Translations under genes and position numbers: made by a program
Shown here: positions 13,007 to 17,831 of the stretch, in pieces
Layout: each line of letters starts with the position of its first letter
How positions within the stretch are numbered: the first letter of the stretch is position 1
Notes under the pieces: model-generated
The model's input: only the letters and a program-made list of their open reading frames with translations
What the model was told of the DNA's origin: nothing
Databases searched by the model: none
Source of the DNA: Candidatus Venteria ishoeyi
GTDB lineage: Bacteria > Pseudomonadota > Gammaproteobacteria > Beggiatoales > Beggiatoaceae
NCBI RefSeq assembly: GCF_030378065.1
Contig: NZ_JAUCGJ010000033.1
Coordinates: 1-17,831 of the forward strand
Length of the DNA stretch: 17,831 bases
Direction: 5' to 3'

Positions 13007-16000
13007 TTATTTCTTCAGCGATGCGTTGATAAACTGTAATAGATCAGTTTCCTGATACGGCTTGGTCAGGTATTCACTCACCCCGGCGTCTTTGGCTAAG
13101 GTACGGTGTTTTTCTGTAGTTCGGGAGGTAATCATACAAATTGGAATATCATTAGTGGCGGCATTAGCGCGCACATGCGCGGTGAGTTCAATACCATTCA
13201 TACGCGGCATTTCCATATCCACCAGCATGACATTGGGGCGTGTTTTACCCATCATTTCAATGGCTTCCAGGCCATCTTTAGCCAGCAGGGTTTCATAACC
13301 TTGATCTTCAACCAGTTGTGACAATGATTTACGCACGCTTAAGGAGTCATCCACAATCATAATATGGGGGATACCTATATCGTCTGCCGCCTCTGCGCCT
13401 GCGCTGCTGGACATACTGAGGCTGATGGATTTTGCAGGTGAGCGTAACAGGCTGGGTAAATCCAGTAAGGCAACCACGCTACCATCCCCAAGAATAGAGG
13501 CTCCGGCAATACCTTTAACATTTTGCACGTAACGTCCCATGGTCTTGGATACCAGGTCACGACTATCGAGCAGCGCATCAACAATAACCGCCGTAGTTTT
13601 ACCTTCCTCTTCAACCAGTACCAGAGAGCGCTCATCCGTTAAGGTCACGGGTTGCACATTTGGCATGTGCAGTAATTCTGCCAGGGTGATGACGGGATAG
13701 GCATTTTTTTCCATATGGAAGCTGATTTCGTTGCCCACTTTTTTGAATTTACCGGCATCAGAAGCCAATGCTTGTGATAAGTAGCTGGTGGGCAAAGCAA
13801 AACGCTCTTTACCCACTTTAATCAGCAAGGCATGTTCCGTTACCAGCGACATGGGCAGGGTCAGGCTGATCATAGTGCCTTTTCCCGGCACGGAATCAAT
13901 ATCCACGCTGCCTTTTAGATCCTTAATACTGGTATGCACGACATCCATGCCGACACCGCGCCCGGAAATCTGGGTGACACCGCCTTTGGTGGTAAAACCG
14001 GGAATAAAAATCAATCGGCCTAATTCTTTGGGTGACAGTTCCTGGGTTTCTTTAATCAGTTCTCGCTCTACCGCCAAGCCTCTGATTTTTTCAAAATTCA
14101 AACCCTTGCCGTCGTCTTCGCAACGTACCACAATGCTGTTACCCTGGCGGAAGCAATTGAGCACCACGGAACCACCTTCCTGCTTGCCCGCAGCGATACG
14201 CTCATCAGGGGTTTCCATGCCGTGATCCACCGAGTTACGCAGAATATGCATCAAGGGGTCGGTGAGTTTGGTCAGCACGTCGCCATCCATCAAAATATCA
14301 CCGCCGATAATCGAAAACTCTGCTTGTTTATCGGTTGCACGGCAGGTCTGACGAATAATACGTTCCAGGCGCGCGGTAATATTTTTAATCGGTACCATGC
14401 GGGTGGTCATCACCACCTGTTGCAGTTCTTTTTGCAGGCGCTCCTGCTGGATAAACATGCCATCTAATGAGGATAAATCATCCAGGATGGTTGAACCCAA
14501 CTCACGCGAATCGGCGATGGTTTCGATAAAACTATGCGTTAAACTGTGTAACTCGTTATATTGTTCAAACTCCAGGGAATCAAAATCACCATCATCACTG
14601 GCCTGCTCTTCTTCAGTATCAACTTCTTTGTCAGCATCATCACCAATTTGGCGATGGCGTTGTCGCCCGGAAATATCCTGTACATCCACTAAGGTTTCCA
14701 GGTCATAACTTTTTTGCTGAACCTGCATTTCCTGGGAATTCAGGTTTTTAGTATTTTGCATGGCCTGACCCAGACGCTCTTGAATCTGACCGATGGAAAT
14801 GGACATTTCCCCCACCAAACGTAATAAGTTATCAATGGTGCGGGTGGGTACGCGCAGGGTTTGCTCGGCTTCACCCGCAGGCGCGGCAGCACCGGCACCA
14901 GCGGCAGCAGGTTTGGCCGCAACGGGCGCGGCACTTGCTGCTTTTTCCAGTTCCGCCTTGCGTTTTGCCAGTTCTTCTTCACTGACATCCAGTTGCCCCT
15001 GGTCAATCCGGTTTGCCCAGTCTAAAACCTCTTGCAATACGGTGACGGCATTTTCCGGTGGCTCTTCCTTACCTAATAAGGCATCGATCATGATTTCCAG
15101 CGTATCTGCCGCTTCGATCATGGTATCGGTCAAAGGTTTGGGCGGGGGTACTGCATTTTCTGCCAGATATTCCAGAATATCTTCAAGATGGTGGGCGACA
15201 CTGGCAATGCCTTTTATCCCGATAATATTGGCAGAGCCTTTTAAGGTATGCGCAACACGTTGCCCCAGTTTGACATCTTCTGGCACAGGATTTTTAACAA
15301 TACGCTGTAATGCAGCAGTAAATTCAGCGGCATTGATCGGCGCTTCTTCCAGGAAGGCATCCAGCAGATCCTGATTAACATCTGCGGGGGGAGAAATATT
15401 AACATCTTCCGGTTTCGCCTGAGTTTCACGGCTGGGTTCCGGTTCCTCTTCCTCCATACCGGAACTTTGTGATAAATTATTCAGTAATTGGTGCGCCTGC
15501 TCATCGGGCAGTGGTGCAGGCCATTCCGACTCGCGCAAATGATTGAGCAGATTAATCACATTGTCAGTGGGTGCCTGTAAATAGGCAATCACCAGATCCG
15601 GCCATTGCGCTAATACACTTTGACTGCTGGCACGCGCGGCCTGATCTTTTTCCGCAAGCTGCTTGGCATTGTCAATAATCAGTTCACAAACCTGTTGCAA
15701 TCCAGGCAAGCCCATCATATCAGCGGCATCTGCCAGACGTTGTACGAGGTCGGTGTAATTTTCAGCAATATTTGCAAATTCAGGATCGCTGGAGTCGGTT
15801 TGACAGAATTTTTGCAGGTTTTCATTCAAGTCCTCTTTTGAGTCCTCAATTTCACCTTGCAACATTGCCAGCATTTCTGTATTGCCTAAAGATATTTCAC
15901 CTTCAGGCGCAGCGCCTTCCACGTCTTCCGCTTCTGTATCTGGCGTTTCATCCAGTTCATCCAGTTCATCCAGAGCGGGTAGTTCTTCTTCAATTTCCGG

Positions 16001-17831: not shown

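Follow-up and report, generated by a model that had tools for sequence, protein, structure and literature searches.

Repeat array of a ChpA/PilL-type kinase

The stretch of DNA analysed here, referred to as the window, comprises 17,831 nucleotides of the giant sulfur bacterium Candidatus Venteria ishoeyi (Beggiatoaceae; contig NZ_JAUCGJ010000033.1) and ends within a minus-strand chpA/pilL-type gene, which encodes a hybrid of a CheA kinase and a receiver (REC) domain. The reading frame is open from 17830 to the stop codon at 13007-13009, corresponding to 1607 amino acids (aa), and its 5' side exceeds the window end. Residues are numbered from the codon at 17830 on the minus strand and refer to this partial window product (P0009). 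N-terminal to the kinase core, the product carries four modules that resemble the Hpt (P1) domain of CheA and have Gln where the phospho-accepting His would be, joined mostly by acidic linkers and followed by a single true Hpt domain. The features of the gene, in the order of translation, are:

13007..17831, minus strand: chpA/pilL-type CheA-REC hybrid kinase gene, 5'-truncated, with 1607 of ~2130 codons in the window (full length from the related contig L001, described below)
17459..17830, minus strand: C-terminal 124 aa of the acidic disordered linker between modules R0 and R1; 41% Asp + Glu, 0% Lys + Arg, with LPELDDLGL motifs
17030..17458, minus strand: module R1, His-less, Hpt/P1-like, residues 125-267; Gln172 (codon 17315-17317) at the His-equivalent site
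16586..17005, minus strand: module R2, His-less, Hpt/P1-like, residues 276-415; Gln320 (codon 16871-16873) at the His-equivalent site
16475..16585, minus strand: R2-R3 acidic linker, 37 aa, 30% Asp + Glu; includes LPEFDEF
16046..16474, minus strand: module R3, His-less, Hpt/P1-like, residues 453-595; Gln499 (codon 16334-16336) at the His-equivalent site
15884..16045, minus strand: R3-R4 acidic linker, 54 aa, 43% Asp + Glu; includes LPELDDDLGLGEELPEIEEELPALDELDELDE
15452..15883, minus strand: module R4, His-less, Hpt/P1-like, residues 650-793; Gln697 (codon 15740-15742) at the His-equivalent site
14996..15385, minus strand: single true Hpt/P1 domain with AHTLKGS motif, residues ~816-945; Pfam Hpt at 821-918, E 9.2e-14
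14723..14866, minus strand: dimerisation domain (P3), H-kinase_dim, residues 989-1036; E 9.3e-4
13850..14260, minus strand: HATPase_c (P4) kinase domain, residues 1191-1327; Pfam E 1.8e-13
13439..13831, minus strand: CheW-like (P5) domain, residues 1334-1464; Pfam E 8.7e-18
13028..13363, minus strand: C-terminal receiver (REC), residues 1490-1601; Pfam E 3.3e-26

Pfam returned Hpt, H-kinase_dim, HATPase_c, CheW and REC in this order on the window product, in agreement with the initial annotation, made from the sequence alone, which had described the C-terminal half as a standard Hpt-P3-HATPase-CheW-REC kinase. The phospho-acceptor of the true Hpt domain is His861 (codon 15248-15250). The H-kinase_dim match is weak, reaching 20.0 bits and thus falling under the 23-bit Pfam gathering cut-off, and the NCBIfam CheA models span residues 820-1461.

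The four modules are mutually homologous, with 26-43% identity and E-values down to 1.7e-28, which is far above chance. These values come from BLASTP of 120-aa pieces against the window protein; the query was cut because self-comparison of the whole protein returned the identity match alone. Module borders were set by hmmsearch with the module profile against P0009, and 23 columns are invariant in the four-module alignment. The count of four proposed initially was thus correct, but the proposed length of ~100 aa was too short, as each helical module spans ~140 aa and has six or seven helices.

A small open reading frame (ORF) downstream of chpA was found with identical sequence on FMSV02000498.1 (GCA_900099115.2; L001), which is 99.3% identical to the window across 15.4 kb. 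In L001 the start of chpA lies 523 codons further upstream, giving a full length of ~2130 aa, and the extra 523 aa consist of a fifth module, R0 (residues 1-146 of the full-length product), and acidic linker, so that the R0-R1 linker extends over 501 aa with 35% Asp + Glu in its full length. The expectation of more repeats past the window end was therefore borne out, with one found. In L001, chpA is split by a 1-bp insertion at codon 1287 in the HATPase_c region (L001 ~8900, window ~13970) into products of 1825 aa and 324 aa, whereas the gene is intact in the window and in the Logan assembly L002. Either the insertion in GCA_900099115.2 arose as an assembly error, or the gene is a pseudogene in that strain.

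The modules had been described as separated by highly acidic linkers, which holds for most of them; the exception is the R1-R2 linker, a non-acidic stretch of just 8 residues (TATPQSNG). The remaining linkers contain 30-43% Asp + Glu and 0-9% Lys + Arg, the latter being zero except in the short R4-Hpt linker. Within the acidic linker, tandem DNA repeats are present with a 141-bp unit (2.2 copies, 94% matching) and a 42-bp unit (2.4 copies), located at window positions 17528-17626 and ~17627-17831 and at 4933-5341 in L001. The linkers of the homologues are all acidic as well (15-36% Asp + Glu, at most 7% Lys + Arg). The LPELD motif, however, occurs in 7 copies here, partly inside the recent 141-bp tandem duplication, versus 0-1 copies in the tabulated homologues. 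This shows that the LPELDD linker motif is lineage-specific and that the acidic composition alone is conserved. Furthermore, no FimV family was found in the Pfam scan of the whole protein, and the NCBIfam scan of the N-terminal 800 aa gave no match at all. The likeness of the linkers to FimV that had been suggested is thus one of composition, and homology to FimV was rejected on the grounds that no FimV model matched, that LPELD occurs at most once in the tabulated homologues and that it lies partly in a recent duplication.

Relation of the modules to Hpt and CheA P1

Several lines of evidence connect the modules to the Hpt family. Pfam Hpt matched 5 of 53 modules (E ≤ 0.01, best 6.6e-5) and was the sole family matched by more than one of them; on the whole window protein, Pfam gave two Hpt stretches, which was noted for R4. 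Profile comparison with hhalign aligned the module profile with the true Hpt domains of the same proteins at E 1.5e-4 over 104 columns, and with 105 Pseudomonas-type ChpA Hpt1 domains at E 1.7e-4 over 112 columns. For calibration, two genuine Hpt families compared with each other gave a hhalign E-value of 7.8e-4. With HMMER, a profile built from 447 module copies detected true Hpt domains at 3e-8 (80 sequences) and Pseudomonas-type Hpt1 at 4.7e-7 (120 sequences). The Pseudomonas-type set had been gathered with a PAO1-type ChpA N-terminus as query, which is 94% identical to database proteins, and the 105 full-length N-terminal domains come from the 120 matches listed. Lastly, an AlphaFold2 (AF2) model of R3, built on a 53-sequence alignment, was all-helical and very confident (predicted local distance difference test score, pLDDT, 96.7; predicted template-modelling score, pTM, 0.91). 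The model has the antiparallel helical-bundle fold of a P1 domain, and its best Foldseek match was 1i5n, the P1 domain of Salmonella CheA.

Because the profile matches are as strong as those between two genuine Hpt subfamilies, these results support the view that the modules are divergent homologues of Hpt/CheA-P1. The initial annotation had raised the possibility of degenerate pseudo-Hpt domains, and the Pfam, hhalign and HMMER evidence agrees with it. Two of the checks it had proposed gave the same answer: hidden Markov model comparison of the modules with Hpt and the ChpA N-terminal Hpt1 supported a relation (E ~1e-4 by hhalign), and the structure predicted for one module, R3, was that of a CheA P1-like helical domain.

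The modules could instead be an unrelated helical bundle whose likeness to Hpt is convergent, in which case they would form a scaffold without phosphotransfer ancestry. The Hpt signal is indeed weak, with all modules scoring below the Pfam gathering cut-off and hhalign probabilities of 50-60%, and the most conserved motifs, WP..V..YL..P and W..PL, both in the module's second half, lack an Hpt counterpart. Sequence searches of the PDB with module profiles likewise found no relative, with CheA P1 appearing at E ~1 only; a search of solved structures with the PAO1-type ChpA N-terminus also gave no match. We nevertheless regard convergence as improbable, given that four independent methods all rank Hpt/P1 first, that the module-Hpt match is as strong as the calibration between genuine subfamilies, that two different Hpt families align to the modules in one and the same register, and that the array sits exactly where other ChpA proteins hold extra Hpt domains.

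Within the Hpt superfamily, the modules match the FimL-related Pseudomonas Hpt1 family no better than canonical P1, and the last-module subtype, which occupies the R4 position before the true Hpt, is the most Hpt-like. The families PF27543 and PF26379 are listed in precomputed Pfam annotation for Pseudomonas-type ChpA N-termini. For the module regions of the L001 product and of P0001, P0060, P0041 and P0089, the same annotation contains PF01627 only, without PF27543 or PF26379. The first module was also considered as an orthologue of Pseudomonas Hpt1, and this was unsupported (hhalign E 0.027).

Both hhalign alignments place the acceptor His, that of AHTLKGS (His861) in the one and that of YVHQV in the other, on the module Gln in the same register. 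This Gln is present at the acceptor-equivalent site in all four window modules (residues 172, 320, 499 and 697) and in R0. Among the 447 copies, the acceptor column holds Gln in 153 (34%), Glu in 142 (32%), Asp in 25 and His in 8 (1.8%), and the modules have no phospho-accepting His in an HxxKG context. All 105 Pseudomonas-type ChpA N-terminal domains, in comparison, carry His at the acceptor. We infer from the Gln at this position that the modules are probably unable to be phosphorylated in the canonical way. The AAExxGL segment had initially been aligned with HTLKGSA of the true Hpt; the lack of His was seen correctly, but the register was off by ~5 residues, as the His pairs with the Gln upstream of AAE.

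Copies with His at the acceptor column include P0002 773-912, P0006 7-146, P0013 1315-1456 and P0025 155-294. They may be reversions or residual acceptors.

We also considered whether the modules are non-canonical phospho-acceptors of the Spt or Tpt kind, with the phosphoryl group residing on a conserved Tyr or Cys, or on the sporadic His, and the modules taking part in the relay. Pseudomonas aeruginosa ChpA has been described with Ser- and Thr-type Xpt domains (PMC12632253, PMC10896506), and Tyr43, Cys66 and Tyr101 are highly conserved in the modules, 8 of 447 of which have His at the acceptor column. On the other hand, the column is Gln or Glu, neither of which is phosphorylatable, in two thirds of the copies, the HxxKG motif is absent, and Cys66 and Asn72 appear core-like by heptad position. 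Moreover, in P. aeruginosa ChpA, the Xpt domains apart from five of the Hpt domains showed no phosphotransfer (PMC12632253). Such a role for the modules is therefore hardly likely. Several phosphorylatable Hpt domains were not found in any of 34 ChpA ORFs, each of which has one His-bearing Hpt.

Conservation, spread and gene context

An exhaustive HMMER search with the four window modules recovered 499 cluster representatives at E ≤ 1e-3 and 289 at E ≤ 1e-10. The proteins contain up to eight module copies in 2300-2600 aa, and in all Pfam-scanned matches the modules lie N-terminal to a single Hpt domain and a kinase-CheW-REC core. A word-index protein search was less productive: a five-module alignment matched nothing and residues 127-790 matched P0001 alone, apparently because the low-complexity linkers overwhelmed the search. 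With six close modules as query, a genome scan, the reach of which is limited to close relatives, yielded 35 loci, the closest of which has ~70% DNA identity to the window. Nearly all are labelled Thiomargarita, Beggiatoa, Thioploca, Parabeggiatoa, Albibeggiatoa, Halobeggiatoa, Marithrix or Thiotrichaceae, and the remaining ones carry broad labels such as Gammaproteobacteria or Pseudomonadota, at class level only. All 34 ChpA ORFs of at least 1200 aa (loci L001-L039) have 3-8 modules and exactly one true Hpt domain. The module is covered by no Pfam or NCBIfam model, and literature searches yielded no publication dealing with Beggiatoa ChpA or with the modules.

About 20 module positions are conserved in 50-90% of the 447 copies, most strongly Y43, A54, G58-L59-x-G61-L62, C66, N72, W94-P95, Y101-L102, P105, W121 and P124-L125. 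In every top orthologue, R4 pairs with the last module and R3 with the penultimate one (40-51% identity), and R0 often pairs with the first module; the identity of these positional orthologues is mostly above that of the paralogues within the window (26-43%). Comparison of the window with L001 revealed 18 synonymous and 5 non-synonymous differences over the whole gene. The four modules account for 4 synonymous and 0 non-synonymous differences in 570 module codons, and 4 of the 5 non-synonymous changes fall in the 124 codons of the acidic linker. These patterns point to selection that maintains every module at its place in the array.

These data bear on the idea that the modules are inert, being either decaying Hpt relics or rigid spacers whose only effect is a longer tether from the N-terminus to the core. 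The module count varies from 3 to 8 among lineages, and the linkers evolve fast with recent tandem duplications, as such a view would have it. It is nonetheless very improbable in the light of the ~20 conserved positions, the closer likeness of positional orthologues than of paralogues in most cases, the absence of non-synonymous changes in 570 module codons versus 4 in 124 linker codons between two strains, and the very confident AF2 model, which points to a well-folded domain. The conservation of Cys66 (72% of copies), together with the sulfur-oxidising lifestyle of the hosts, could be taken to mean that the modules are cytoplasmic sensors, for instance with the Cys of GLQxVC as a redox or persulfide sensor feeding the kinase. 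Cys66, however, lies in the hydrophobic heptad register of helix C beside V65 and I69 and is probably buried, and no cofactor-binding family in Pfam was matched by the modules. We accordingly think a sensory role highly unlikely.

In L001, chpA is directly adjoined upstream by a gene for a CheW protein (pilI-like) and one for an 854-aa dCache_1-HAMP-MCPsignal receptor (pilJ-like), and is followed downstream by a 157-aa ORF (X157) and then by a weak CheW-like gene. The two downstream genes are in the window:

12396..12869 (L001 10001-10474), minus strand: X157, a 157-aa acidic protein with an isoelectric point (pI) of 4.1, located directly after chpA in ~20 related loci
11852..12373, minus strand: divergent CheW-like (chpC-like) gene, last of the cluster; Pfam CheW E 3.1e-7, from the L001 gene call and synteny

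The recurring order in Beggiatoaceae is PilG-like, PilH-like, NMT1-like binding protein, PilI (CheW), PilJ (MCP), ChpA, X157 and CheW-like. Two REC genes (pilG-like and pilH-like) come first in 14 of 35 Beggiatoaceae/Thiotrichaceae loci, those that reach far enough upstream, and the PilH-like REC protein of the Beggiatoaceae loci has ~125 aa. Three more distant members show the order REC (280-330 aa), REC (120 aa), CheW, MCP and ChpA. The upstream genes that had been suggested as a check were thus found in part in L001 (pilI- and pilJ-like) and in part in relatives only (pilG- and pilH-like), as L001 ends at pilI. Together with the domain order, this context upholds the assignment as a ChpA/PilL-type CheA-CheY hybrid and supports the conclusion that the gene encodes the kinase of a Pil-Chp-like (type IV pilus) chemosensory cluster in a Beggiatoaceae-type gammaproteobacterium. 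No CheR (PilK) or CheB (ChpB) gene was found in the contiguous clusters, from PilG-like to CheW-like, of L001, its relatives and the three distant members; these genes could sit elsewhere in the genome. Nor was a WspE- or FrzE-type context with CheR/CheB seen at L001 and the related loci, and the context is Pil-Chp-type rather than Wsp or Frz.

X157 had no Pfam match in the window. One X157 homologue showed a weak CheW match (8.6e-4), comparison with CheW families by hhalign was non-significant (E 0.06-0.11), and a single-sequence AF2 model was uninformative (pLDDT 38). X157 may be a very divergent CheW-like protein.

Several other genes of these loci were noted. A periplasmic binding protein of the NMT1/NMT1_2 type lies between pilH and pilI (L032 4804-5865, L006 591-1847 and most of L007-L037), and in a distant member a Phosphonate-bd binding protein follows chpA. 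That such a protein is encoded within a Pil-Chp cluster suggests that the dCache PilJ senses its ligand indirectly. The PilG-like regulator has ~275 aa with an N-terminal extension of ~150 aa (L032 3490-4323, L007 705-1538, L008 402-1235), which by eye has the look of a degenerate receiver (e.g. IAIVDADDP), and Pfam sees the C-terminal REC only. With a pI of 6.8-9.1 and a net charge of 0 to +3, this extension could conceivably be a basic partner of the acidic modules. The distant member L040 has FimW (N- and C-terminal domains), an MglB-like Robl_LC7 protein and a Crp-family regulator flanking the cluster (1-3537, 12863-13537), as well as a weak ATP_bind_1 match that is possibly an MglA-like GTPase; these flanking families are all linked to pilus or polarity control.

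Elsewhere in the window, an 834-aa protein encoded at 7336-9840 on the minus strand, and also in L001, matches Pfam MVP_shoulder (1.4e-29) and, weakly, Vault_3, and appears to be a bacterial relative of the major vault protein known from eukaryotes. Between yicC and glmS (window ~3786-4373, plus strand; L001 18497-19084) lies a gene pair encoding 98 aa and 93 aa, the 93-aa product of which matches HicA_toxin; the pair is probably a HicAB toxin-antitoxin module.

Docking and scaffolding as a proposed role for the array

We favour the interpretation, at a probability of about 0.65, that ChpA carries five Hpt/P1-derived, His-less domains besides one active P1, and that the modules are non-catalytic docking or scaffold units. 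The domain architecture, the homology of the repeats, their descent from Hpt/P1 with loss of the His, the family-wide conservation, the positional orthology and the gene context are shown by the data; the docking role is proposed by analogy with FimL, with AHP6 and with those Xpt domains of P. aeruginosa ChpA that are not phosphorylated, and appears the most likely one. The accessory domains are His-less, yet conserved and kept in position, which argues for a job that is independent of phosphotransfer; and because Gln occupies the phospho-acceptor position, canonical phosphoryl carriage by the modules is not expected.

Of the about nine Xpt domains of P. aeruginosa ChpA, five are phosphorylated and the rest have been proposed to be scaffolds (PMC12632253). 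Like P. aeruginosa ChpA with its eight or nine Xpt domains of the Hpt, Spt and Tpt kinds, the protein described here is a CheA-REC hybrid in which Hpt-type domains and low-complexity linkers form a long N-terminal array, and it is encoded after pilI and pilJ. Unlike in P. aeruginosa, every accessory domain is His-less (Gln in five copies), leaving one true Hpt, and the modules form a separate sequence family for which PF27543 and PF26379 are not on record. The cluster also differs in lacking pilK (CheR) and chpB (CheB), and its PilJ-like receptor has a dCache_1 sensor.

FimL is a homologue of the N-terminal part of ChpA; both of its putative acceptor sites are occupied by Gln (PMC3019171), and FimL and FimV are hub proteins required for the polar localisation of PilG (PMC12632253). 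As described, FimL shares with the modules an Hpt-like domain type in which Gln stands where the acceptor His would be, and the non-catalytic hub function of FimL in polar PilG localisation provides the functional model proposed for them. FimL is a separate two-domain protein, whereas the His-less domains described here are fused to the kinase in 5-8 copies.

Compared with CheA P1 (Salmonella 1i5n), the modules keep the helix order, and the alignment also matches the GxxG turn that follows the acceptor helix. They differ in the replacement of His48 by Gln and the loss of HxxKG, with a sequence identity of 8-15%, and in the C-terminal helices that the model of the module adds, where W94-P95, Y101-L102, P105 and W121..P124-L125 have no Hpt counterpart. 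A further precedent is the plant pseudo-Hpt AHP6, in which the acceptor His is replaced by Asn and which works by competing for partners instead of transferring phosphate. AHP6 is eukaryotic, single-domain, unrepeated and outside a kinase, whereas the modules are kinase-borne and in tandem, and the His losses are independent.

In the docking interpretation, the N-terminal 1300 residues would form a beads-on-a-string array of five P1-descended domains with Gln at the acceptor, in which the acidic, fast-evolving, disordered linkers would serve as flexible spacers. The sixth, membrane-distal P1 (His861) would be the only domain phosphorylated by P4. Two routes can be envisaged. In the first, the P1-like helical surface would bind receiver domains without phosphate transfer, with PilG-like or PilH-like regulators or the REC domain of ChpA itself as candidate partners, which would thereby be concentrated, sorted or sequestered around the single active P1. 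In the second, the modules would anchor the kinase to proteins of the pilus or of a polar hub, in the manner of FimL in Pseudomonas.

A number of observations weigh against this interpretation. The sequence similarity to Hpt is weak (hhalign probability ~50%), and no Pfam match of the four window modules passes the gathering score. The conserved residues W94, Y101, W121, C66, N72, P95 and P105 lie mostly outside helices A and B, where receivers dock on P1, and the functional surface of the modules may for this reason differ from that of P1. Eight of the 447 modules have His at the acceptor column, albeit without an HxxKG context, and these copies, in other species, might still transfer phosphate. 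With respect to the context, L001 ends at pilI, so that pilG and pilH were seen in relatives and not in its own genome, and control of type IV pili by this cluster is inferred from gene context.

A bolder possibility, which we hold to be doubtful, is that the array is a multivalent pseudo-P1 platform, in which five to eight His-less copies with Gln or Glu, strung on long, acidic and disordered tethers, would bind many receivers at once or tell phosphorylated from unphosphorylated forms; Gln and Glu may here mimic the unphosphorylated and phosphorylated states of the acceptor. If this were true, the kinase would be a response-regulator sponge, sorter or condensate scaffold, the spatial range and the gain with which pili or gliding are controlled in very large cells would be determined by the array, and docking would also be the function of those Xpt domains of Pseudomonas ChpA that are not phosphorylated.

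FimL and AHP6 are earlier examples of Hpt domains lacking the His, and nothing is overturned by these findings. What is new is a widespread His-less P1 subfamily, as yet without a model, that occurs in tandem inside a kinase. This lineage offers a natural experiment on why Pil-Chp kinases hold so many phosphotransfer-type domains, as its accessory domains are His-less and yet conserved, position-kept and present in 3-8 copies in every ChpA examined. The ~500 cluster representatives without a Pfam or NCBIfam model make the modules definable as a new domain family, and a model of this family would improve the annotation of chemosensory kinases in Beggiatoaceae and other bacteria.

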